Below, in pieces: positions 4,776-61,124 of a DNA stretch of 64,000 bases. The stretch lies in IMG/VR virus record IMGVR_UViG_3300038468_000190, positions 64,001 to 128,000 of that record; one strand, written 5' to 3'. The notes beneath the pieces are model-generated. The model searched no databases and was not told where the DNA came from. It saw nothing but the letters and a program-made list of their open reading frames with translations. Source of the stretch: a virus. Within the stretch, counting starts at the first letter, position 1, and each line of letters starts with the position of its first letter. The translations under genes and the position numbers were made by a program.

Positions 4776-6943
<2,168 letters not shown>

Positions 6944-27358: not shown

Positions 27359-27712
27359 TCAAATCCGAAAGAGGGTCGCGCCCTTGTGCCATCCGACGGG
27401 CTTTACTCCCTCCGAGGGGTCGTGGCAGTGCCACATGACGACGAGCCCGAGCATGGCCCCGTCGTCGTCGACGAAGGTGTCCGTCGCGCCCATGGGGAGC
27501 GACAGGGCCGCCCTCGCGCGCGCGGACGCCGTCCCGCTCACCGGCCCCGAGTAGAGCGTCCAGCCGCCTGGGACAGCCGGCTGGGGGCTCGGGGGCGGCG
27601 TCTTACAGATGGGCATCTCGTCCTCGATCGGCGCTCGGAGGAGATACGCGAGCGCCGCCGCGCCCGCCGCCGCGATCCCTCCGCCGAAAAATAGGAGCGC
27701 TCGCCTCTGCAT
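27359..27712 (-). CDS. Hypothetical protein with N-terminal membrane anchor
   Basis: TGATG coupling; hydrophobic N-terminus. Confidence 0.55.
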   Translation of the reverse strand: MQRRALLFFGGGIAAAGAAALAYLLRAPIEDEMPICKTPPPSPQPAVPGGWTLYSGPVSGTASARARAALSLPMGATDTFVDDDGAMLGLVVMWHCHDPSEGVKPVGWHKGATLFRI

Positions 27713-28686
27713 CAGCGGAAATGCCTCCCCAGGTTTTCGAGGAGCTCCGTTTCCCTGATGGGCGGCTCGTAGGGCGTCGCCATCGCACCCGGGTCGAGAA
27801 TGACCATGGAGAGCGGCCGCACGTCGCCCTCGATCTCCGCGTGGACGCGCCAGCCGACGTTCAAGAGGTGAAGGTCCTGAAAGACCAGGTCGCCGTACTG
27901 GACGGCGCTGAGCAAGGTCTGCCCAATGATGTCGCCGTAGCGGTTCACGTAGCCGTGGCCGCGCATCTTCTCGATGGCGGCGAGCATTTCCTGAAACGCC
28001 CTGTCGGCGATGTCCTCGACCTCTTCTTTCGAGAGGCCGTCGTACGCGCGGCGCATGAGCTTACCGCGCCAGGAATGGAAGATGAGCGCGTGCCGCCGGT
28101 AGTCCTGGAGCGACATCAGGACGATGAAGAGCTCGCGCATCCGGACCTTCAGGTCTTGAGGAAACGTCGAGAGCGCGTCGCTCATCGCCGAGAGCGACGG
28201 TTCTTTCGGGTCGATGCCGGCCCGCTCGAGAATGGCCGGCGTCATACCGAGCCTGCGGAGCGTTTCCTCGGTCGCGAAGTCCGGGCGCCGGAGCACGGGC
28301 TCCGCCGCCTCGCGCACGATGCCATAGACGGGCATCTCTTCGCTTCCGAAGATGACGTCCGGGTGGATCCGAACGACATCACGAACACGAAGGAACGCGT
28401 CGAGCTCTGCCGAGACCTCGGAATCGCCGAGGAGCTCGGCCATGTAGGCCCAGATGGGGCCCTCGGTCCGGTCGCGGGTGAGCTTGACGACCCAGGGCGG
28501 CTCGGAGTCGAAGACGCAGCCCCAGAGCCCGCAGCCGAGGAGTTCTCCCATCGGGACAGCCATCGTCCGCCGAAACCGGTCGAGGTTTGCCTCGAGAAAG
28601 GAGGACCAGGCGCGCTTGGCCGCAAGCTCCTCGGTGAGCCCCTTGTCGAGCTCGATGGAGGTCATGGGCGCGCGGTTACGACGCAC
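27712..28686 (-). CDS. Protein kinase-like fold protein, paralog of 25042-25917
   Basis: LGCGLWGCVF, PWVVKL..D.TEGPIW, DLHLLNVGW, LDPG. Confidence 0.7.
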   Translation of the reverse strand: MRRNRAPMTSIELDKGLTEELAAKRAWSSFLEANLDRFRRTMAVPMGELLGCGLWGCVFDSEPPWVVKLTRDRTEGPIWAYMAELLGDSEVSAELDAFLRVRDVVRIHPDVIFGSEEMPVYGIVREAAEPVLRRPDFATEETLRRLGMTPAILERAGIDPKEPSLSAMSDALSTFPQDLKVRMRELFIVLMSLQDYRRHALIFHSWRGKLMRRAYDGLSKEEVEDIADRAFQEMLAAIEKMRGHGYVNRYGDIIGQTLLSAVQYGDLVFQDLHLLNVGWRVHAEIEGDVRPLSMVILDPGAMATPYEPPIRETELLENLGRHFR

Positions 28687-28741
28687 CCGAAGGATTCTAA
28701 GTGAGGTCCCGGCCGGAATCGAGTGGGATCGGTTCGGGTCC

Positions 28742-28830
28742 CTGACGAGCTAGATCATCCATGGCGGTCGGCTGACGAAAACGCGCGAGCACCCGATTTC
28801 CTCTTCCTGACGAACGGCAATAATCACTGG
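28742..28830 (-). repeat. Decayed repeat remnants at the array trailer
   Basis: CTGACGA at 28742, CTGACGAA at 28772, CTGACGAACG at 28807. Confidence 0.55.
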
Positions 28831-28855
28831 AAGCACGCCTGCTGCTGGTTGCGGC

Positions 28856-29900
28856 CTGACGAACGCCATCGGTCACCGTAGGCCTTCCACGCGATGAATC
28901 AGATCCTTGCCGAGTGGTCGCACCCTCTGACGAACGCCATCGGTCACCATAGGCCTTCCGAGCGAGAGCGTTGTGCAGGCGGCCGCGGTGATGCGAGCTG
29001 ACGAACGCCATCCGTCACCCGGAGCCCTTGCGAGTAATATTGAGTGGCATGCCCGCGGGGACCTGAGTACTGACGAACGCCATCCGTCACCGTAGGCCTT
29101 CCGAGCTCGATGCGCCGGTTGCGCCTGTCGAGCCCGTGGGACTGACGAACGCCATCCGTCACCGTAGGCCTTATACGAGTCGCCCGAAAACATGGGCGCC
29201 GATGGGTGATCGAACTCTGACGAACGCCATCGGTCACCGTAGGCCTTCCGATGGCGAACGACAGGCGTCCGCACCCCGGACCGAACTGCTGACGAACGCC
29301 ATCGGTCACCGGAGCCCTTTGCGAGGTCGAGATCGAAATACGCTCGCCTCGTCCGAACTCTGACGAACGCCATCGGTCACCGGAGCCCTTGCGAGTCGCC
29401 ACCGCCGTCGAGAACGGCGAGCTCCGGAGCACCTGACGAACGCCATCCGTCACCGTAGGCCTTCCGAGAAGCAGTGCGGCGTCTGGTACAGCCAGCGCGC
29501 AACCCTGACGAACGCCATCCGTCACCGTAGGCCTTCCGAGCAGTAGCCGCGCCGGATGGATGGCGCTAACATTCGCACTGACGAACGCCATCCGTCACCG
29601 TAGGCCTTCCGAGTTTCCAACGGAGAGACTTGTACGGACAGAAAATGTCTGACGAACGCCATCCGTCACCGTAGGCCTTCCGAGTTCTCCGCCTGCGGGA
29701 CTTCCGGCACGCGATCCATCTGACGAACGCCATCCGTCACCGTAGGCCTTCCGAGCCGGAGGGCGGAGGGAATGATTCCGGAGAGACTCTCCTGACGAAC
29801 GCCATCCGTCACCGTAGGCCTTCCGAGCTTTCTTTTTCGCCTCTTTAGACCTCTGCGCGTCTTCCTGACGAACGCCATCCGTCACCGTAGGCCTTCCGAG
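28856..29900 (-). CRISPR. CRISPR array: 15 repeats (36-bp consensus) and 14 unique spacers of 34-37 bp
   Basis: Repeat (- strand) CTCGGAAGGCCTACGGTGACGGATGGCGTTCGTCAG; + strand starts 28856, 28927, 28998, 29070, 29142, 29217, 29289, 29360, 29433, 29505, 29578, 29649, 29720, 29792, 29865. Orientation inferred from degeneration toward low coordinates and a G:U pair in the 3' hairpin. Confidence 0.97.
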
Positions 29901-31774
29901 CCGTCCCCTCGGAGCCGAGTGACTCCGAGGCTTTGCGGTGCGGTTTGCGAGCGGTGCAGATCGTCGGCTCTGCACTCGGCCGTAACTCGTGGAAGTTGTT
30001 CGTCGTCGGCTCTCGCGTCGCTGGACCTCTCGAATGGGCTAGGGTGATCGATAGCATTCGGCCCCGAAGGGCCATCCGGTTGGTTCGCGGCGCCGGTAAT
30101 GGCTCCGTTCCCCGTTCCACGCTTGTGGCGTGTCCGGTTCCGAGGGCGATCCGGCGGCGTGGAGGCCGAAGCCTCCTCCGCCGTGGTTCCGGTTCCACTC
30201 GGCATTGTCCGAAGGGCGGAGCCCTCCGGGTTTCCCCCGGCGAGTCCCGCCGGAGTTACTGGTGCGCCCGAAGGCGACCTGTAGTCTCGAAGATTCTTGG
30301 CGCTGTTCACTTCGCGGTCCTCGGTGTGGCCGCACGCGGGGCAGTGGAAATCCGGGTAGCCCGGATCCGTGTCCCTGACGTTACCGCACACCGAGCAGCG
30401 CCGCGAGCTCGCGAATTCTTTCTCCGCGAACTCCGTCGTGCCGCCGGCCCATCCCTGCTTGTATTCGATGCGCCGGCGGATGTCGCCCATGCGGGCAAAC
30501 TGCACCCAGCCCGAGACGCGCTTTCGCGTCTGCTCGCCCGCCTCGGTTTTGCCGGCACGGGCCTTCATGTCCGCCACGAACGCGTCCCTCATGACGAGCG
30601 TCCCGGCGCCCGTGTCGACGACGGCGCGCGCGGCGCGGCCGGCAATGTAATCGCGGAGCTCGGTCGCGCGGCGCGAGTAGAGCGCCGCCTGAGCCTTGGC
30701 CCGGCGCCAGCCGTTCGACTGGATGCGGTCTTTGCGCGGAGTGGTCTTCGGGTAGGCCTTGTGCCGGCGCGCCATGCGCCGCTGCCAGAGCGCGATCTTC
30801 CGCTCGTAGGCCGCGAGGCGCTTCTCTTCTCGGATGCCGACGATGTCCACCTCGCCGCCGCTCGTCACGACGAGATGCCGGACGCCGACCTCGACGCCGA
30901 CGCGCTTGTCCGTCCGCGTCACGGGTCGCTCCCGGAGGGCTCTGCCGGCTCCACGGGGCCCAGGACTCGGCCGCGGCACAGTCCCCCTGAGCGAGACGTA
31001 CCAGCGCCCGCCCCATTCGCGAAGGCCGACGGCGGAGCACTGCCCGCCCCCTATGAACCGATGCGAACCCTCCTCGGTCGACGGAAGATAGCCGCGCTCC
31101 TTGAGCTTCACCCAGCCGACGCCTGGGATCTTGATCGCCCGCTCCGTCACGCGAAGCGCGCTCGGCTGGTCGGCGTGCCAGCGGCGGTTATCGCCGGACC
31201 GAAAGCGGGGCTCTCCGAGTTCGCAGCCGGGCGCTCCGCGGCGAGCGTCACACTCGGAGTGATCGCCGCGCGCGTGCTTCTTCAGCCGGCGCCAGAAGTG
31301 CTTGTAGGCATTGCCGACGTCGGCGGCCGCTTCCCGAACGGCGAAGGCACTCACCTCCGTCAGCCAGCGGAGCTCGGCCGAAGCGTGCTTAACCGCCGTG
31401 AGCTCCTTGTGCAGGGCATCGGCGTTCGGCATGGACTCGGGCTCCGCGTACGGGAGCCTCACCTGAAACTTCCAGAGCGTCCGTGGCGCCGCGCCGCGCT
31501 TGGCGCGCTTGGCCAGGCGCTCCGCGGGCTCTCCGAAGACGAGGGCGTGAAGGCCGAGCCCGAGCCACCACGCGGCGAGCCCGGTAGCGTGATCGAAGCC
31601 GGCAAGGGCCCGAAGGCCGCTAGCGACAGAGTAGATGCCGTACTCGGCGCGCCAGCGCTCGAGAGTCCAGTTGTACGCCACGCGTGCCGCTGCGATGTGC
31701 CGCGCGAGCAGGCGCCGTTGCTCGACAGTGGGGTCGAGCTCGGTGCGGTAGGCGCGATCGATCATGTCGGTCAT
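29882..31774 (-). CDS. TnpB/Cas12f-like RNA-guided protein with substituted RuvC triad (predicted nuclease-dead), CRISPR-adjacent
   Basis: AYRTELDPT.EQ...ARVAYNW N-terminus, PRFR, IKIPGVGWVKL, WYVS, GVEVG (RuvC-I), VMRD (RuvC-II), IEYK..W.G, SSRRCSVCG/CPACG zinc finger, DREVNSAKNL (RuvC-III). Confidence 0.9.
   Translation of the reverse strand: MTDMIDRAYRTELDPTVEQRRLLARHIAAARVAYNWTLERWRAEYGIYSVASGLRALAGFDHATGLAAWWLGLGLHALVFGEPAERLAKRAKRGAAPRTLWKFQVRLPYAEPESMPNADALHKELTAVKHASAELRWLTEVSAFAVREAAADVGNAYKHFWRRLKKHARGDHSECDARRGAPGCELGEPRFRSGDNRRWHADQPSALRVTERAIKIPGVGWVKLKERGYLPSTEEGSHRFIGGGQCSAVGLREWGGRWYVSLRGTVPRPSPGPRGAGRALRERPVTRTDKRVGVEVGVRHLVVTSGGEVDIVGIREEKRLAAYERKIALWQRRMARRHKAYPKTTPRKDRIQSNGWRRAKAQAALYSRRATELRDYIAGRAARAVVDTGAGTLVMRDAFVADMKARAGKTEAGEQTRKRVSGWVQFARMGDIRRRIEYKQGWAGGTTEFAEKEFASSRRCSVCGNVRDTDPGYPDFHCPACGHTEDREVNSAKNLRDYRSPSGAPVTPAGLAGGNPEGSALRTMPSGTGTTAEEASASTPPDRPRNRTRHKRGTGNGAITGAANQPDGPSGPNAIDHPSPFERSSDARADDEQLPRVTAECRADDLHRSQTAPQSLGVTRLRGDGSEGLR
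29901..30285 (-). ncRNA. Candidate structured RNA (omegaRNA/tracr/leader-like) overlapping the effector 3' end
   Basis: At least six hairpins, three with cUUCGg loops on the - strand. Confidence 0.5.
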
Positions 31775-31776
31775 GG

Positions 31777-32028
31777 TCAAGGGGTCTTCGGGACGGCGCA
31801 CTCGATGATAAGGGCGTTCGGGGACTCGCGGTAGGTGCAGGCGCGGGCGTTCGGGGAGGGCTTGGGACCGTCGCCGATGGTCCAGTGAGCCAGGAGGCAG
31901 AAGCCGACAAATGCGACGGCGCCCAAAAGCCAGAGGAATGGCCCGGGGACGCCCTTACGCGCGGCGACGATCACGCCGACCGTACACACGATGGAGAGCG
32001 CGACGTTCATGTGCTCGAAGAACGTCAC
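31777..32028 (-). CDS. Small two-helix membrane protein
   Basis: GTGA overlap with HD gene; stop 2 nt before effector ATG. Confidence 0.6.
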   Translation of the reverse strand: MTFFEHMNVALSIVCTVGVIVAARKGVPGPFLWLLGAVAFVGFCLLAHWTIGDGPKPSPNARACTYRESPNALIIECAVPKTP

Positions 32029-32939
32029 GGCGCCTTGCCTTTCACGAGCTCGAGGAGGCGCTGGGAGTTGTGCTCGAGCTCGAGCAGGCGCAGGGCGTTG
32101 TGCTCGTAGAGGAAGGCGATGTCCTTCTCGAAGAGCGGTATCGCCACGCGCGGCTGCGCTGCGCTGGGCGGATCCTGAAGTGCCGCTCCCAGAGGAAACC
32201 GGCAGACCGCAGGCCATCGCTCGTCGTTGATGTGCTCCGGAAGCATCATCGCCGGCACGAGCCCGAACGACCCGTCCAAAATCTCGGGATACGGCTCGAC
32301 GCCAGCCGGCCAGTTCTCGTCACGCGTGTTCGGCATGAGAACGGGACAGCGCCGCTCCGTCTCGCGCATCCGCTGGTCGACCCTGCCGACGATGCGCCCA
32401 TGCGGAGCGCGGAGTAGATGGAGCCCGAAGTGCGAGCGGATAGCCTGGGCGACGCCGCGCTCGATGTCGTCTAGCGGGGAGCGCCCGTCGTAGACTCCGC
32501 GGCTCCGTCGAAGCGTCGTTTTGAGAGGCCCGGACAGATCTCCGATGTACGCCTCCTGAGCGTCGTGAAGGAGCGCCTCGAGCTGGAGCGCGTAGTCGTC
32601 CGGATGCTCGAGGCTCACGACGAGCCACACCCAGAGCGAATGCTCAGCGACGGAGTAGCCCTTACCGGTGTGTCCGACGAAGCGGTTCAGGTGGGCGAGC
32701 GAGTGCGCAATATCCTTCAGGCGGACGTCGCCCGGCTTCGGGCTCAAGAGATCGAAGCCGACCCCACTGAACGTCTCGATGATGGTCATGGGCTTCGGCC
32801 GCGTCTCGGCGAGGAGCGCCTCCGCCGCCTCGCGCCAGGTGGCGAAGTCGTCGCCGCCGACCGTGAGGCCTTCCATGGGCGTGAGCTCCTCGAGAGCTGT
32901 CTCGAGAAGGTCGAGGGCGGTTTTGAGGTGGTCGGTCAT
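32025..32939 (-). CDS. HD-domain phosphohydrolase (YfbR/YfdR-like 5'-deoxynucleotidase)
   Basis: DIAHSL...NRF.GH, YSVAEHS, LLHDAQEAYIGD..GPLK. Confidence 0.85.
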   Translation of the reverse strand: MTDHLKTALDLLETALEELTPMEGLTVGGDDFATWREAAEALLAETRPKPMTIIETFSGVGFDLLSPKPGDVRLKDIAHSLAHLNRFVGHTGKGYSVAEHSLWVWLVVSLEHPDDYALQLEALLHDAQEAYIGDLSGPLKTTLRRSRGVYDGRSPLDDIERGVAQAIRSHFGLHLLRAPHGRIVGRVDQRMRETERRCPVLMPNTRDENWPAGVEPYPEILDGSFGLVPAMMLPEHINDERWPAVCRFPLGAALQDPPSAAQPRVAIPLFEKDIAFLYEHNALRLLELEHNSQRLLELVKGKAP

Positions 32940-34794
32940 CGGTGATAGTTCGCGAAGTCTCGAATGGCCCTCCGGAGCATGACCCCCTCGAGCCCGCAAT
33001 GGCCGCACGTGTCGGCGAGGGTCGCGTCGGACGCGTATCCTGCGAGCGCCCGCAAAAACCTCTGGAGCATGCGAAGGTGGTCGATGAAGCTGTGGTAGGT
33101 GTTCGTGATGTCCCGGAGTTCCTGGACCTGACGGTCGATGCTCCGCGCGAAGTCGGTCTTGTGATCCTCGTACTGGGGATCGAAGTCGGTGGGGCCGGGG
33201 CGGCTCATGACTCGAGGCTCTGTTTAAATGCCGCGAGACGCTTCCGGTCCTGCATCTTAAAGCGGCGTATTTCGACGCTGGGCGCCACCGAGCGGAGAAG
33301 CGCCTCGGCTTCTTTCATTCGGCCATCGAGCACTCTGGCGGCGCCCATCGTGCCCCGTCGCCAAGTCTGCACGCACCTCATCAGCGCCACGAACAGCGCT
33401 CGGCGCTCTACCTTGATGTCCGGGTCCACCTCGGGCTCGCCGCTACCAGGGGCCGCGTACGAGTCAGGGTCGATCGCGGTGCTCAGCAGGGAGTACGCCT
33501 CCTGCGCAATCGTGAGAGTGCGGATATGCTCTTGCAGAAGTTCTGCCCGCGTTAGCCCCTCTAGCCATTCTCTCGAGTCGTCCGGATCGGCGGCGCCGCA
33601 CCAGAGCACCTTGGCAGCCTCACGCATTGCGTAGGCCAGATCGATCTCGGATAGAAGCTCGTGGGCCACGTCGTGAAAATCAACGCGGTCCACGCCATTT
33701 AGTTGGAGGATCGCATCCGCGAGCGCCTGCGCGTCGTCGGGCCTGCCGTAGTCGTCCAGCGTGACAGCTAGTCCGTTGGTGTAGGCATTGTCGGCTTTGC
33801 GCTTGGTCGGCCGCAGCTGCACTTTCTTGGCCCGCCTGGTCTTCCTCATGTCTTGAATGCTTTCTCTGCTCGCCGCCTCCGGAGCTCGTGGGCGCGAGCC
33901 CAGCCCGAGTCCGTGAGCCAGAACCTCGGATTCGCCCCCGTGCCGCGCCACTCGAGAAGCCCCGCGGCGACCAAGTCGTCGACCGCGTCCCAGTCGTCGT
34001 GTCCCTGGATCTGCGATCCATCGCGGAGCGTCGTCGAGTACTTGCCCGACCAGGTCCCGCCGCTCGGCACCATGAACTGTGGATGGCGTTCGGGGTTACA
34101 GCTCAGGCGTCGAAGGTCCGGGTATCCCCTACTGTCGACACACACGGTCTCGATGTAGAGAACCAGGCTGTCGTGGTTTTTCCCGAACAACTCCGGCAGG
34201 ACTCGATCGATCCTGTCCGGGGGCGCTTGTCGGCGCTCCATCGTGGTAGCTCCTTGTTGTAGGAGCGAGCCTACTCGTCTCGGTCGGCCCGCGCAAACTC
34301 TTGGACGTCCCTCCAGAACCGTTTAGTCACCGGATCGGTCGAGGCCCGGATGATTTTCTCGCACTCCAGGTCGAAGCCCTCCGGATCCGTGAGGAGGATC
34401 GTCCGTAGCTCGTCGGCCGTCACACGGGCGGAGGAGGGGTCTCTCGCCAAGCGGGTATCCATAAGTGTGGCCGGAAAGTGGGCCGGCTGGGAAGGGGGGA
34501 AGGGATGTTCAGAGGGTGTAGTAGTTCTCGATGAGCTCGAGGAGCCGGCGTCGCCAGTCGATGGGAGCAAGGAGCCACGTCTCCCCTCCGGGCGCCGAGC
34601 CCATGTCGTAGAGCGCCTCGTGGATGCGGCGCGCCAAAAGGTGCGGATCGGGAAGCCTGTGTGCCTCGAGCCGCTCTACCTTCGCGTGGAGCTCCGCAAT
34701 GATCCGCTTGTCGAAGGCCGCCTCCTCGCGGAGCGTCTTGTTCTCGAGCTCGAGAGCCCTGAGCCGGCGCTCTCGCTCTGCGTCGGGGGTCGTG

Positions 34795-52612: not shown

Positions 52613-54307
52613 AACCCTTTGGGGGCTCCCGGCCTGGGTTAGCCGGCGGTGCGGTTCCTTCCCTCTTCCTCACCGTCCGCCCCGGCCGGGGGCTTCCCAT
52701 CTAGCCCGCACGAAAGGACACTTCTACCCATGCACCGCCTGACCCCCGTGAACGCCGTTCTCGCGGGCGCGCTCGCGCGCGTGATGCCGCGTGGCGAGGG
52801 CAAGGTCGACTGGCTCGACGTCGCCGATGAGTTCGTCCTGGCGACGGCGCACACGCTCACCATCCTCGACAAGAAAGACTACGACCGCTGGGACGGCGAG
52901 CTTCGCCGGGCCAAGGAGTACCTCCGAGCCCTGGGAGTCCAGATGCCATGACGACCAACATCCGCGAGGATCACGCCGTTTCGTTCGTGGAGCTCGTAGA
53001 GAAGCTCGTCGAGCTCGCCGTCCGGGACTCGATCGGCCCCGGCCAGTGCATCGCTGCGCTCAAGGTCGCGGCGGCGTCGCTCTCTCTCGAGCTCCCGACC
53101 GAGGTCGTCCGGGCAGGCCGGGCCTTCGGCAAGGACTTCGCGACCGAAACCCCGGAGGGGGCACTTCGCGGCATGGCGCGCCGCGCGCTCGACGAGAGCG
53201 AGAAGGCGATCCCGGAGACCCTGCCCGACCAAGCGCTCAAGGACCTCGTACGGCGCGCCACGAACGCCATCACCGCCATCGACCAGAAAGACGGCCTCGG
53301 GACGCTCATCGTGCTTCACATGGCGTCGCACATTTCGATGGCCATCATGAAATCGCAGAGCACGGAGGACGAGCTCGCGATGAAGCTCACGAAGTTTCTG
53401 ACGGCGCGCCGGATGATTGCCCGGATCGAAATGGACGTGCAACAAATCGGGCATATGACCCGAGGAGGAGACGCATGACCGTCGCCGCCAAGGACGCCGT
53501 GGCCGGCAAGATCTACCGTCTGACGCGCGAGAGCGGCACGACGTACTACAAGATCTGCGACGCGGCCTCGGTCAGGCGCCTCGAGAAGCGCCTGTCGACG
53601 CAAAGCATCCAGAGCATGAAGCCGGCGGACAGGTTCGCGTGGGCGGCCATCGGCCGCTGCCGGAGCCGCGGGCACGTCCTGTCCGTGCGCATCCTCCGCT
53701 ACCGTGACGACGGCGGCAGGCCCCACGAGGCCAAGGCGTACGTCGACTTTCCTCCGGACTACGTGCTCCGCGAGGTCGAGCGTCCGCCGGGCTACAGCGC
53801 CGGACGGCGGCGCGGACTGGACAACGGCGGGGCGGAGGCGGAAGATTCATGACGACCATGGATGATCCGACACATCCGGACGAAGGCGGAGATGTCGTCA
53901 CGGACGACACGACGGTCGGTGAGCTACAGAAATGGCTAGCCGATCACCATGTGACGCTCCGCTTTCGGCTCGTGCCGATATTCCCGCTCGCTCCCGTCGC
54001 CTCGCTCACGAAGAAAATCAACGAGGCTATTAGCCTCCGACGCCACTATCTGACATTCAAACGGAACCGCACATGACCGGCCCGGTCGAGCTCGTAAGTT
54101 TCCGACGGCCACGGCTGCCATGTCGGCGTACGACGCCGACCTCATCGCTCGCGGCTGGCTCATCGACGAAACGGCAGCGCGTCCGGACAGGGAGACCAGC
54201 CGGGTCCGGCGGTGCCTTCACGGCGTGCCGCAGGACACTTGGTGTGCCGACTGCGGCCGAGACGAATTCCTCGAATCACCGTCCGAGCCCGGACAGGAGC
54301 CCCTAGC

Positions 54308-57284: not shown

Positions 57285-60200
57285 ATGTTCTCGGAGAACC
57301 GTCCCGAGCTCGCCCTGCTTCGCGGCAAGCGCGGCCCCGACGTGCTCGAAAAGTGGACGGCTGTCTTCGGCGAGGGGCGCCAGGATACGACCGCGCGCTA
57401 CCGGGAGATCCTCGATCGCATTGCGCGCCCTACCGCCGGCGAGGGGCCGTACGTCGGCCGTTACTCCAAGGAGACGGGGCGCGCGTACGGGCACGCCATC
57501 GCCGAGTTTTTCGAGTGGTGCGCACGGCAGCATCGCCGGCCCGTCCTACCCCGCGAGGTCAGCCGGCGAGACGCCGAGGACTACGTCGCCTGGCTCGCCG
57601 ATCGGCCCTTCAGCCTCGAAGAGGAGCGCCTCCGAGACGGCGACGCCGAGGGCCGGCTTACCATTTACGAGGCCGTGAAGAAGCTCGGCTCGGCCGATCT
57701 CTCGAGCATCCGGGCGGAGCTTCCCGAGCGGCTCGGAAAGAACAAGGCCGCGCTCGCGCACGAGCTCGGGCGGATGGTCCTTCACGATCTCCTCGTCCGG
57801 AGCCCGACGCTCGACGAGCTCAGAAAAACCGATCCGCAGATCGGCATCCGTCACTTCTCCGTGCCGATGCCCGGCGGCGGCGCCATGGATCTCGACGACG
57901 TCTTCGTCTACTCGACGCCGGAGCCCCGCGGCCTCAGCCGTTCGACGATCGCGCTCCGGCTCTCCGCCCTCTCGCGCTTCTGGCAGGAGCTCTGCCGCGG
58001 CGATCCGGAGACGCCGCCGCTCGTACGGTTCAACGTGTTCGACGAGATCTTGTCGCGCGTCTCGCGGGGGCTCGCGGCCGATAAGCGCGCCGCGCGCGCG
58101 CGTAAGGCCCGGCTTACGCCCGAGCTCGTCTCGCGCCTGCTCAATGCGGCTGACGGCCAGACGCTCGTAGAGAAGCGCGACGCGGCGCTGTTTTGGTTCG
58201 TGGTGCTGATGGGCTCGCGCGTCAGCGAGGCGCGGCTCATCCTCCGGGACAAGCCCCGCGACGTCCACCACGCGCCGGGCTGGCTCGAGCCGCTCTCGAC
58301 GCCGGTCGTCGTCGAGCTCGTCCGAAAGGGCGGCGTCCACCATCGCTTGCCCTATCCGCCGTACGCCCTCCGAGCGCTCTACGCGTTTCAGACCGAGCTC
58401 GAGCGCCACGCCGCGCCCCGCGGGAGCCAATCCGAAGATCCGCGCTCGCCCGGCTACGTCCAGCCGCGCTCGCCCAAGTGGCGCTACAAGGCGCTAGCCG
58501 AAGAGCCCGACGCGCCGCTCTTTCCTCCGGTCGTCTTCTGGGGCGCAAACTCCCCCGAGCTCTACGAGGAGCAGAAACCGAATCCCCTTCGGCCCGACTA
58601 CCGCCGGCCGATGAGCGCGGCCGGCGTCCGGGCGATCTTGAAGAAGATCGCCAAGAAGGCCGGGCTCTCGCCGGAAGAAGAGCGCGCCGTCCACAGCCAC
58701 GCCTTCCGGCACTTCGCGGCGACGGCCATGGCCCGTCGCGGTAAGCCCCTCCGCGAAATCAAGACCCTCCTCGGCCACTCGAGCATCACCGTCACCGAGG
58801 GCTACGTCGAGGACGAGACCGACTTGGCCGCGCTTTCCGGTCAGAACGAAATTCTTGACTACATCGCGACCGGCGAGACGGCGCCTGGCGCGCCCGCCCC
58901 CGCGCCCGCGCGCGTGGCGCCACGAGCGCCTCCAGAAGCGCCGCCGGCTCCCCCTCGGGTCATCGAGACGGTCGGCGTCAGAGCCCCTGAGAGGCGCCCC
59001 GAAGAGCCGGGATTGCCCGCCGAGTCGCCCACCGCCCGGAAGGGCCCCGAGACGCACGAGGTCGGAAGGGGCCTCGTCGCCGTCTCGGAAAAGGGGCCGC
59101 TCCCTCCCGACCGATTCCCCGGAAAGCCCGACGTCTCGGCGGGCTCGCCCTACTACGCCTACGCCGACATCGGCTCGGAAGACGCGGCCGACAGAGAGCC
59201 CATTCACTTCACCAGGGTAGGGCCCGCTCGAGCCTCCACGCGCGCGACGCTCTACGAGAAGGCCGGCAAGAAGATGGTCCAGGAGGATCCGTTTCTCGCC
59301 CGCCACTACGATCCGTGGCCGCTCGGCTACGGGATTGGCGAGACGTCGCTCCTTCCGTGGTTTGCGCGCGGCGCTGCCTCGAAGCACGGCGACGTCGTCG
59401 TCGACGTCCGCACGCGTACGGGCGAAAAGAAGAAGGCCGTCGTCCCGCCGCTTCCCGTCTTCGCCCCCGAGCAGCTCTACTCCGAGCTCAAGGCGAAGAC
59501 GCTCTTCTCGCGGGTCGAAGCGATGCGCGAGCGGTTCCTCAAAGAGGAGCCGACGAAGGCGTTCGGGCTCGACAGGTGGTGGGGCGCCTTTCAGGAAATC
59601 AGTAAGGGCCTCTCGGCTGGCACGAAGGGGAAGTTTCGATTCGTGCCGTTCGAGTCGGCGGGGGCGGTCGGTAAGGACGTCCGCGCCCACGACGACGAGT
59701 ACCTCGCCGCCTGGCTCGAAAAGAACGCCGGCCGCTACACGACGACCGTGAGGGCCTTCGAGAGCATCGAGCGGCCGCGCGGCGGGGCGCGCGACGAAGA
59801 AGAATGGGCCGCCTTCCGGGAGGCGTTTGCAAAGGCGTCGCTCGTCGGCGTGAGCCCGGCGGAGGAACTGCCGGACTGGTTTATCTTGGACGATCCCGTC
59901 AAAGACATCTGGAAGCAAAACCCGGAGGAGTGGGAGTGGTTTTCGAAATGGATCGGCGCCGTGACGGGCCAGAAGCTCACGAGCGCGCGAAAGGACGAGC
60001 GCGCCTCCGAAGTCCGGCTCGCCGAAGAAACGCGCCGCACGCGGATCGACGAAGCCCGCGAGCTCCTCAAGGCCTACTTCGAAAGCGTCGAGACCCTGCA
60101 CCGCGCGGGGCGCGCGCGCGACAAGGACGAGGCCGACAGGGAGCGCGAGACGATTGCCCTTCTCACCGAGCGCCTGGGAGCCCTCGGCGTCAGGGATCCG

Positions 60201-61124
60201 AAGACGGCCAAAGAGCTCCCCCGCACGCTCTCGGCGCGGATCGAGACGCTCCTCTCCGAAGCATTCCCCGAAGCCGGCGTCGAGCTCGTCGACCCGAACG
60301 TCCTCGAGAGCTCGCTCTTCGACAAGGAGTCATTTCGGATTGACAGGTTCGAGCACACGATTGTCCACACGGAAGCTTTCCGCGCGGAGTTTGCCGAGCG
60401 CTACGACGGGCGGGACTCGGAGTGCGTGATGCGCCGCGCGGCGCGCGGAATGTGGGAGCACGTGAAGCGCCATGGCATTCCGATCCAGCGCGGCACCGAG
60501 CGGTCGAGCGAGTACAGCCTTCTCTACTCGGTCATGCTCTCGTACATCGCCTGGATCGTCCCCTGCCCGCCGGACATCGAGAAGCGCATGACCGAAGTCA
60601 CCAAGGGCGAGCTCACCGGCGAGGAGGCGCGCCTTCGCTACCTCGGAGCGTTCCGGAAGGCGTCCGCGCGGCTTCTTCGCGTGACGCGTGACCACGACGA
60701 GGAAGAGCTTCTCGAAGCCGCGATGGACGAAGGGCTCGACGCGATGGGCGCGGCCGAAGTCCTCGAAGCCTCCCTCGTCGAGGACAGCCTCCGGGCCGCC
60801 GTAGCGCTACCGAGCGCGCCGGTCACCGAAGCTCTGGCCCGCACGGCCGTAGAATCCGGCGCCGTCGCGGTCAGTAGCCGCCGCCCCGCCGTCATCGTGG
60901 CGCGACGCGTGGGCCGGCAGGTCGTTCGCGACGTGCCGGTGCCGGCTGCTACCTACTTCTCGGTCGGCGACGACGACGAGGATGCCGAGCTCGCGCCGAA
61001 TGCGCCTCCCCGGCGCTACCTGACGCCGAATGCTCTTCGCGCGGGCCTCGCCTCCATGCGCCGGCCCGAAGAGACGATGCCGTCCGTCCTCCGTATGATG
61101 ACGGCGATGACGATCGGCTTTTAG
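57285..61124 (+). CDS. Very large tyrosine recombinase (1279 aa) with ~750-aa unrecognised C-terminal extension
   Basis: SRSTIALRLSAL..F, RDAAL, GSRVSE, RKGG, HAFRH, LLGHSSITVTEGY: intact R-K-H-R-H-Y set. Confidence 0.9.
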   Translation: MFSENRPELALLRGKRGPDVLEKWTAVFGEGRQDTTARYREILDRIARPTAGEGPYVGRYSKETGRAYGHAIAEFFEWCARQHRRPVLPREVSRRDAEDYVAWLADRPFSLEEERLRDGDAEGRLTIYEAVKKLGSADLSSIRAELPERLGKNKAALAHELGRMVLHDLLVRSPTLDELRKTDPQIGIRHFSVPMPGGGAMDLDDVFVYSTPEPRGLSRSTIALRLSALSRFWQELCRGDPETPPLVRFNVFDEILSRVSRGLAADKRAARARKARLTPELVSRLLNAADGQTLVEKRDAALFWFVVLMGSRVSEARLILRDKPRDVHHAPGWLEPLSTPVVVELVRKGGVHHRLPYPPYALRALYAFQTELERHAAPRGSQSEDPRSPGYVQPRSPKWRYKALAEEPDAPLFPPVVFWGANSPELYEEQKPNPLRPDYRRPMSAAGVRAILKKIAKKAGLSPEEERAVHSHAFRHFAATAMARRGKPLREIKTLLGHSSITVTEGYVEDETDLAALSGQNEILDYIATGETAPGAPAPAPARVAPRAPPEAPPAPPRVIETVGVRAPERRPEEPGLPAESPTARKGPETHEVGRGLVAVSEKGPLPPDRFPGKPDVSAGSPYYAYADIGSEDAADREPIHFTRVGPARASTRATLYEKAGKKMVQEDPFLARHYDPWPLGYGIGETSLLPWFARGAASKHGDVVVDVRTRTGEKKKAVVPPLPVFAPEQLYSELKAKTLFSRVEAMRERFLKEEPTKAFGLDRWWGAFQEISKGLSAGTKGKFRFVPFESAGAVGKDVRAHDDEYLAAWLEKNAGRYTTTVRAFESIERPRGGARDEEEWAAFREAFAKASLVGVSPAEELPDWFILDDPVKDIWKQNPEEWEWFSKWIGAVTGQKLTSARKDERASEVRLAEETRRTRIDEARELLKAYFESVETLHRAGRARDKDEADRERETIALLTERLGALGVRDPKTAKELPRTLSARIETLLSEAFPEAGVELVDPNVLESSLFDKESFRIDRFEHTIVHTEAFRAEFAERYDGRDSECVMRRAARGMWEHVKRHGIPIQRGTERSSEYSLLYSVMLSYIAWIVPCPPDIEKRMTEVTKGELTGEEARLRYLGAFRKASARLLRVTRDHDEEELLEAAMDEGLDAMGAAEVLEASLVEDSLRAAVALPSAPVTEALARTAVESGAVAVSSRRPAVIVARRVGRQVVRDVPVPAATYFSVGDDDEDAELAPNAPPRRYLTPNALRAGLASMRRPEETMPSVLRMMTAMTIGF

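Follow-up and report, generated by a model that had tools for sequence, protein, structure and literature searches.

Does a phage-borne TnpB relative in which all three RuvC catalytic positions have changed still cut DNA, or does it act by binding it? The question is raised by a module at 28856-31774 of the stretch analyzed here (64,000 nt, hereafter the window), composed of a gene for a 630-aa effector and a CRISPR array at its end. The window covers bases 64001-128000 of a single 140,124-bp contig of 65.7% G+C, an IMG/VR virus record rated 100% complete by CheckV. We computed the anatomy of the module, its family-wide conservation, the linkage between gene and array, the covariation of its RNA, and the near-matches of its spacers to the carrier's own genome. 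The combined results suggest a phage-borne, transposase-free, TnpB-derived type V-like CRISPR module that would bind rather than cut the DNA of sibling phages, a reading for which we see about even chances of being right or wrong.

Catalytic site of the effector and its conservation

The effector gene and the residues that define its catalytic site are as follows.

29882..31774, minus strand: effector gene, 630-aa TnpB-derived protein; ATG at 31774, stop TGA at 29882-29884, alternative GTG at 31801
30890..30892, minus strand: RuvC-I position, Glu295 in GVEVG (canonical Asp), aligning to D191; family E 48, D 8, S 1
30587..30589, minus strand: RuvC-II position, Arg396 in LVMRDA (canonical Glu); Arg in 57/57 family members
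30311..30313, minus strand: RuvC-III position, Glu488 in DREVN, where the canonical residue is the second Asp of DRD; every family member has Asp or Glu
30332..30397, minus strand: zinc finger CxxC...CxxC, C460, C463, C478 and C481; invariant across the family

The 630-aa form starting at the ATG is identical to a database protein (P0002), scores 139 bits against the NCBIfam model NF040570 guided_TnpB (cut-off 100) and matches the Pfam domains HTH_OrfB_IS605 and Cas12f1-like_TNB (PF12323, PF07282). In an AlphaFold2 (AF2) model the core reached a predicted local distance difference test (pLDDT) above 85, and residues 506-630 were predicted to be disordered (pLDDT ~35). Foldseek matched this model best to TnpB (8iaz/8h1j; target-normalised template modelling score, TM, 0.78), followed by Cas12p, Cas12f and Cas12m. 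The triad was mapped by hidden Markov model alignment of both the family profile and the single sequence to ISDra2 TnpB (8h1j/8bf8), 8iaz, an AI-designed TnpB and RdCas12n (9j09). All alignments agree that E295 aligns to the RuvC-I Asp, R396 to the RuvC-II Glu and E488 to D361 of ISDra2 (native numbering, by direct count), the second Asp of DRD. In place of the canonical D-E-D triad, the effector carries E295/R396/E488, and the RuvC-II Glu is absent family-wide. An earlier note on this DNA had proposed from the letters alone that the three RuvC positions are non-canonical and the zinc finger intact; its codon assignments were correct, the substitutions fall on the true catalytic positions of ISDra2 TnpB, 8iaz and RdCas12n, and the four cysteines proved invariant.

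Word-indexed and exhaustive searches yielded a family of 57 proteins (481-717 aa, 33-80% identity), which form one clade with a support of 1.0 in a 200-sequence tree. The triads seen in the family were ERE (27), ERD (22), DRE (8) and SRE (1), with no DED and no D-R-D. RuvC-I is Asp or Glu in 56/57 members, RuvC-III in 57/57, and the motifs around these acidic positions, GVExGV and DRExN, are kept across the family. With acidic residues at both of these positions and an invariant Arg at RuvC-II, the RuvC pocket is, as judged from the alignment, a conserved non-canonical site and not the outcome of drift.

The next relatives outside the family are ordinary TnpBs of ~400 aa with a DED triad, and no intact triad was found among relatives with at least 33% identity. 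Compared to the 80%-identical locus L123, the core of the window gene differs at 71/49/181 first, second and third codon positions, a pattern of purifying selection. The gene is not decaying, since purifying selection acts on it and its family of 57 members is monophyletic; this disposes of the concern, raised in the earlier note, that it could be a decaying copy of homologs with an intact RuvC. Among 48 aligned members, the only columns that are 100% acidic are RuvC-I, RuvC-III and the GDI/GEF position, the last of which is also acidic in canonical TnpB, and no compensating Glu in beta-5 or nearby is conserved family-wide. Glu448 in beta-5, a possible counterpart of the relocated Glu reported for RuvC-II-rearranged TnpBs, was considered as a family-wide substitute for the RuvC-II Glu and rejected, being found in only 25/48 members. 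The possibility of intact acidic residues elsewhere thus found no family-wide column to rest on; a substitute that varies between lineages could still serve.

The distant TnpB matches include a separate, conserved non-canonical RuvC lineage (P0089, P0100 and ~16 others) with His at RuvC-I, triads HEE, HQE and HED, and an AAHLG motif.

The CRISPR array and its guide RNA

The following elements lie at or beyond the 3' end of the effector gene.

28856..29900, minus strand: CRISPR array of 15 repeats of 36 nt (CTCGGAAGGCCTACGGTGACGGATGGCGTTCGTCAG) with 14 distinct spacers of 35-39 nt, period 71-75
28742..28855, minus strand: decayed repeat remnants at the distal end of the array, in units ending ...CGTCAG
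29885..30259, minus strand: tail of the open reading frame (ORF), residues 506-630 (125 aa); disordered protein, hairpin-rich RNA
30028..30064, minus strand: anti-repeat, ~164 nt upstream of repeat 1, pairing with 29/36 repeat bases
29941..29953, minus strand: conserved nucleotide motif CGCTCGCAAACCG, 47-58 nt before repeat 1

Repeats 1-7 of the array are identical, mutations are found in the distal repeats, and the effector stop TGA (29882-29884) occupies positions 17-19 of repeat 1. The earlier description of an ORF of ~630 aa with TnpB layout that stops inside the first repeat of a 15-repeat, 14-spacer array was thereby confirmed in all its parts. The linkage is a property of the family, with an array directly 3' of the gene in 11/14 loci with usable downstream sequence (L001, L122, L002/L049, L043, L044, L045, L047, L126, L127 and L129). 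Contigs L123 and L124 break within a first repeat, and no array was visible at L052, L121 or L128. In all family loci examined the ORF stays open through the scaffold described below; the stop codon is a TGA at repeat position 17 in seven lineages and lies at position 11 or 14 in two, and at L129 it falls 1-5 nt before repeat 1. A single RuvC-fold effector with an adjacent array, conserved in homologues as expected of a type V system, is therefore present in the window and in at least 11 homologous loci.

The three arrayless loci (L052:6300-7600, L121:7650-8480 and L128:5420-5804) have Arg at RuvC-II and could represent orphans or forms with a single guide. The contig of L121 is 912 kb long, with a reverse-transcriptase gene close to the locus, and L128 retains scaffold-like motifs past an earlier stop codon. 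At L047:6896-7260, spacer 1 equals spacer 5, an internal duplication of a repeat-spacer block. In a 19-kb contig of wetland run X1, repeat 12 is joined to repeat 1 (29069 to 29865) with 795 nt skipped, a junction that could stem from a variant with a shorter array or from identical repeats collapsed during assembly.

Between the window and L123 the ORF tail differs at 25/22/31 codon positions, with no bias, compared to the 71/49/181 of the core, and its predicted RNA fold contains hairpins, four of them with C-UUCG-G loops. We read it as a scaffold resembling a tracrRNA (trans-activating CRISPR RNA) or omegaRNA. A 13-locus alignment of the scaffold showed 56% nucleotide identity versus ~40% protein identity, and CGCTCGCAAACCG was exact in 10/14 array-bearing or array-truncated family loci, with a one-base variant in 3 more. 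The anti-repeat lies at a similar offset across lineages (-158 to -219 nt), and the lineage's own repeat gave the best duplex in 6/9 lineages, which have quite different repeats.

RNAalifold recovered the long-range duplex between anti-repeat and repeat, in which 19/30 pairs are compensatory. By pair counting, 83.6% of the cells were paired compared to 69.5% in shuffles, and 0/500 shuffles reached the observed value; when anti-repeat and repeat were slid against each other, only 33-45% were paired. A covarying anti-repeat, the hallmark of TranC-like and tracrRNA-dependent type V systems, is thus found here. In contrast, the 3' hairpin within the repeat showed no covariation (284/500 shuffles reached the observed value), so that the proposal of a CRISPR RNA (crRNA) with a 3' repeat hairpin as in type V gave way to anti-repeat pairing. 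These results indicate a tracrRNA/omegaRNA-like system and not one based on a hairpin-only crRNA, because the ORF tail encodes a structured RNA with a covarying anti-repeat. No Rfam family was found in 28600-32100. A second candidate anti-repeat, a duplex between the repeat and a GC-rich segment at plus-strand 27515-27554 (-45 kcal/mol, beyond the 0.1% background), was put down to chance; it lies within a minus-strand coding ORF, 1.3 kb away, and is unconserved.

A tracr-like RNA held fully in coding sequence, with the stop codon within the first repeat, is an unusually compact overlap of gene and RNA, and bears on how tracrRNA and crRNA arose as separate parts of an omegaRNA, as well as on designing miniature tools for CRISPR interference (CRISPRi).

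The same architecture extends to a sister clade. Its protein P0088 (locus L140) has the canonical D-E-D triad and lies on a low-GC contig; L140:1350-1950 contains the CTCGCAAACC core, an anti-repeat and at least 3 repeats of 36 nt, with the stop 1-5 nt before repeat 1. The CRISPR association is, on this comparison, older than the Glu-to-Arg change, because scaffold and array are shared with the sister locus that retains DED. Since a DED member and the Arg branch share one clade and one scaffold/array architecture, the step from nuclease to altered site becomes directly testable by residue swaps. Neither the Arg family nor the sister clade fits the curated Cas12 models, which is compatible with the independent TnpB-to-Cas12 transition that the earlier note had thought possible.

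Spacers, mechanism and rival readings

Two of the 14 spacers nearly match the carrier's own genome.

29469..29504, minus strand: spacer 6, matching the own genome at 53449-53484 at 33/36, with mismatches at positions 2, 4 and 7
29106..29141, minus strand: spacer 11, matching a collagen-like fibre gene at 35/36, with a mismatch at position 7
6472..6507, plus strand: near-protospacer of spacer 11, within fibre gene 5609-6943

The near-match of spacer 6 lies within a 276-aa gene of unknown function. In a related complete phage (G001), one spacer matches its own genome at 34/37 compared bases and the genome of the window phage at 30/37; the mismatches of this self-match are at positions 15 (16 if the spacer starts one base earlier), 35 and 37, and the seed is intact. 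No match was obtained when the whole array was compared with 50,697 GenBank phages (blastn, E up to 1), and exact 22-24-mers of spacers 4, 6 and 12 were not found in IMG/VR. No clear common motif emerges from the sequences 5' of the three near-matches to self, CCCG, CGGG and GGGC. The search for protospacers and a shared protospacer-adjacent motif (PAM) that the earlier note had called for returned near-matches in the own genome and neither a full protospacer nor a PAM. Spacer G+C was marginally lower than that of the genome (0.62 vs 0.656; P = 0.049). That three spacers match conserved phage genes points to competition between sibling phages, and the data fit an origin of the spacers in sibling phages whose counterparts in the carrier may escape by seed changes. 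These near-perfect matches to the carriers' own conserved genes offer a concrete model of phage-against-phage competition.

The fibre gene contains long tandem repeats of 9 nt and 63-66 nt (6006-6498), and spacer 11 has further matches in this tract at 6172-6207 (30/36) and 6265-6300 (29/36). G001 (L001:8110-8147) and L122 (7963-7999) share a spacer with few differences, and the L122 version fits the G001 genome better than the version in G001 itself.

From this anatomy we propose how the module could work. Effector, scaffold with anti-repeat (the final ~375 nt of the ORF) and the 15-repeat array at the ORF end lie on one strand, and the operon would be transcribed as a single RNA. The anti-repeat would pair with each 36-nt repeat, with repeat 1 in cis and with the others in trans or at long range, and we infer that the near-full-length duplexes are probably cut by a host RNase. 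Guides of the scaffold:crRNA type, in which the repeat is followed 3' by the spacer, would then be loaded by the effector, and most likely this complex attaches to double-stranded DNA of matching sequence and so blocks transcription or replication. Binding without double-strand breaks is suggested because an invariant Arg replaces the RuvC-II Glu and no substitute Glu is conserved. A possible role of the acids retained at RuvC-I and RuvC-III is to hold the displaced strand via a metal ion, as in Cas12m2; another is RNA processing. The likely targets, and with them the purpose of the module, would be close relatives that compete with the phage for one host; its own versions of the targeted genes differ in the PAM-proximal seed.

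Whether the effector still cuts is the point at which the explanations part. What stands of the nuclease-dead, multiplexed RNA-guided DNA binder of the earlier note is a domesticated, transposase-free TnpB derivative with its own array in a phage and substitutions at the catalytic positions; its deadness is not established, and the silencing of host defence genes and the borrowed adaptation machinery that the note also suggested are conjectural. Loss of nuclease activity is plausible, because no compensating Glu is conserved and near-perfect self-matching spacers are tolerated, yet the acidic residues that are conserved could sustain an active site in rearranged form, which leaves the loss unproven. 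The cationic Arg at a metal-ligand position favors a binder, and Cas12m clades with conserved non-canonical triads, which bind without cutting, provide a precedent (PMC10442227). Several observations weigh against binding to sibling-phage DNA. The Asp/Glu kept at RuvC-I (56/57) and RuvC-III (57/57) suggests a pocket that still binds metal and could be catalytic, and a lineage-variable substitute could be provided by Glu448 or Glu449 of beta-5 (31/48) or by Asp/Glu at +1 (33/48). Altae-Tran et al. 2023 argue that TnpBs with a conserved rearrangement of RuvC-II, including virus-specific cases, stay active via a relocated Glu (PMC10691335), and Cas12r, the only phage analogue with experimental tests, has an active nuclease (bioRxiv 10.64898/2026.04.20.719267). 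By energy alone the anti-repeat of the window is borderline (17/300 shuffles); across loci the duplex energy was significant in 6/10 and not significant in L001, L044 and L045. Finally, the searches of GenBank phages and IMG/VR gave no full-match protospacer, and hence no PAM and no target class.

A rival reading is an effector that is still a nuclease, in which the RuvC-I and RuvC-III acids cut or nick DNA with the help of the Arg or of an acidic residue specific to the lineage, and the module is a conventional weapon against phages or mobile genetic elements, like Cas12r; we consider this possible, though on the unlikely side. It accords with the strict conservation of both acidic positions and of GVExGV and DRExN around them, with the predicted activity of RuvC-II-rearranged TnpB clades, virus-specific ones included (PMC10691335), with the DED triad of a sister clade that has the same array architecture, and with the dependence of Cas12r interference on its RuvC (bioRxiv 10.64898/2026.04.20.719267). 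The seed mismatches of the self-matching spacers 6 and 11 would also be expected if self-cleavage must be avoided. However, the family has no conserved acidic residue outside RuvC-I and RuvC-III, the metal-ligand position is taken by an invariant cationic Arg, and the absence of any member with Asp at both RuvC-I and RuvC-III suggests a re-adapted geometry; moreover, the 34/37 self-match in G001 has an intact seed and is nonetheless tolerated, unless that site lacks a PAM. Regulation of the phage's own genes, in which a binding-only effector would be steered in a TldR-like manner to the fibre, unknown-function and phosphatase-like genes, draws on the three spacers in two related phages that come within 1-3 mismatches of the carrier's own genes and on the missing nuclease triad. 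Yet self matches are limited to 2/14 spacers and fall within coding sequence instead of promoters, spacers 6 and 11 are mismatched in the seed, the part to which binding is most sensitive, the spacer-target differences resemble orthologue divergence, and 14 spacers with distally decaying repeats look like an acquisition record. Autoregulation is thus improbable, and a weaker alternative than an origin of the spacers in sibling phages. That the locus is a decaying TnpB/IS remnant beside a chance or degenerate repeat tract could be imagined from the non-canonical triad and the lack of a transposase, but it is refuted by the conservation data and can be given next to no credence: the family has 57 members and a strong third-codon-position bias, arrays with covarying anti-repeats follow the gene in at least 11 loci, and the identical sequence occurs in two wetland studies.

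Binding to sibling-phage DNA can be carried one step further, to a proposal that we offer tentatively and think more likely wrong than right. The Arg-for-Glu pocket, with its Asp/Glu flanks that are never Asp at both positions, could be a new functional site by which a nuclease of the TranC type became a natural, multiplexed CRISPRi weapon of ~120-140-kb soil and wetland phages against their siblings, and deliberate translation through the embedded tracrRNA to a conserved TGA in repeat 1 could couple effector synthesis, scaffold release and array transcription. If this were true, the change from DED to xRx within an array-linked clade would provide a natural before-and-after pair for the evolution of a nuclease into a binder.

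Related systems and genomic setting

Compared with known systems, the closest concept in architecture is TranC as outlined by Jin et al. (Cell 2025, via PMC13565253). As far as that source describes it, TranC shares with the module a TnpB-sized effector derived from an IS605/IS607-type TnpB, the lack of an adaptation module, and an omegaRNA whose function is divided between a tracr-like scaffold and an array of crRNAs immediately 3' of the gene. The family profile, however, scores 64-67 bits (E 1e-16 to 1e-17) on LaTranC (9jfo/9jfq) versus 179 on ISDra2 TnpB, and the module differs from TranC as outlined there in its RuvC-II Arg, in a scaffold wholly within the ORF and in its carriers, phages of ~120-140 kb. 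ISDra2-type TnpB is the best match in both sequence and structure, and its scaffold likewise overlaps the ORF 3' end with the guide 3' of the scaffold; unlike it, the module has no TnpA and no transposon ends, and has a multi-guide array, an E-R-E triad and ~220 additional residues.

Cas12m (V-M) is also a compact type V effector with conserved non-canonical triads (HDD, HEK, HQK), silences by DNA binding without cutting, and is found on mobile elements in inter-element conflict (PMC10442227, PMC11656645). In contrast to the module, it needs no tracrRNA, has another triad chemistry and is mostly plasmid-borne. The effector matches Cas12m only locally and so falls outside it, since only the zinc finger and RuvC-III align (43-53 residues, E 1e-6 to 8e-4; Foldseek TM 0.37-0.41). 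Cas12r of Thermus Lalka phages is a phage TnpB-like effector followed by a short array without cas1/cas2, from a TnpB branch not earlier tied to CRISPR, and serves mobile-element conflict; its RuvC is active, as D238A abolishes interference (bioRxiv 10.64898/2026.04.20.719267). The likeness is one of description, and Cas12r differs in its 564 aa, 29-bp repeats, lack of a tracrRNA, PAM ARG and restriction to thermophiles.

The CRISPR-linked dCas12f cluster and dCas12f-sigmaE (Hoffmann et al. 2026, PMC13472631) are likewise naturally inactivated miniature effectors, some of them beside arrays, with a proposed role in transcriptional control. They are members of the Cas12f clade in which a C-terminal truncation removed RuvC-III, whereas the RuvC of the module is full-length and substituted and falls in the typical (DRDxN) TnpB clade. 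The effector does not belong to Cas12f/dCas12f (NF049972 and related), scoring 13 bits on NCBIfam Cas12f2 versus a cut-off of 450, and Foldseek ranked the dCas12f structures 9n9m and 9n9c 29th and 35th against the effector model. Cas12n (V-U4) and V-U6 to V-U45 are early TnpB-derived, array-linked effectors, Cas12n being tracrRNA-dependent, and some V-U groups have altered catalytic sites (PMC10691335), a likeness to the family by description only. RdCas12n (9j09) differs in its DED triad and scores 151 bits against the family profile versus 179 for TnpB. TldR, defined by a single adjacent guide, no array and a link to the host gene it regulates (fliC or oppF), is set apart by the 15-repeat array in a phage operon. 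The Arg family joins, as an independent lineage, the small set of RNA-guided effectors in nature whose RuvC site is non-canonical yet conserved (Cas12m, Cas12k, dCas12f and TldR), V-U6 to V-U45 being likened by description only; its distinctive chemistry is the invariant RuvC-II Arg, and its carriers are large environmental phages.

The carrier is represented by identical sequence in wetland metagenomes of two studies. Phage-type genes in the window include the collagen-like tail fibre, an endolysin, a soluble lytic transglycosylase (SLT), a deoxynucleoside monophosphate (dNMP)-phosphatase-like gene and an FkbM methyltransferase, and the neighbours of the module are the phosphatase-like gene, a methyltransferase and genes of unknown function. 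The ORF immediately upstream of the effector is listed here.

31777..32010, minus strand: small membrane-protein ORF, 77 aa, two-helix; G+C at third codon positions (GC3) of 0.87 supports coding; stop 2 nt before the effector ATG

This ORF bears out the tight packing described in the earlier note, which had placed the effector 2 nt from an upstream stop, and it probably shares an operon with the dNMP-phosphatase-like gene (32025-33008). A longer 146-aa gene at 31777-32217 was rejected, the coding signal being confined to the last 77 codons. A scan for sigma-70 promoters in 28500-32300 found none.

The absence of tnpA, cas1 and cas2 that had been described for the window extends to the whole genome: Cas1 and Cas2 were not found in the 140,124-bp record, in which Cas4 was not searched for, and Y1 TnpA (PF01797) and serine recombinase (PF00239) had no match across it. 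Pfam and PHROG scans of ten neighbouring ORFs revealed no transposition genes such as the Tn7-like tnsB, tnsC and tniQ that accompany Cas12k, the tns families not having been searched by name genome-wide. When ten neighbours from the window, for the most part those already scanned, were compared with the family loci by tblastn, neither transposition genes nor an accessory gene conserved beside the module turned up. No family member was found in GTDB species genomes, in which the matches were distant Streptomyces TnpBs only, and a 24-kb segment had no megablast match among GenBank phages. Elsewhere in the window, 57285-61124 encodes a 1279-aa protein, unusually large for an integrase, with its tyrosine-integrase domain confined to residues ~210-530.

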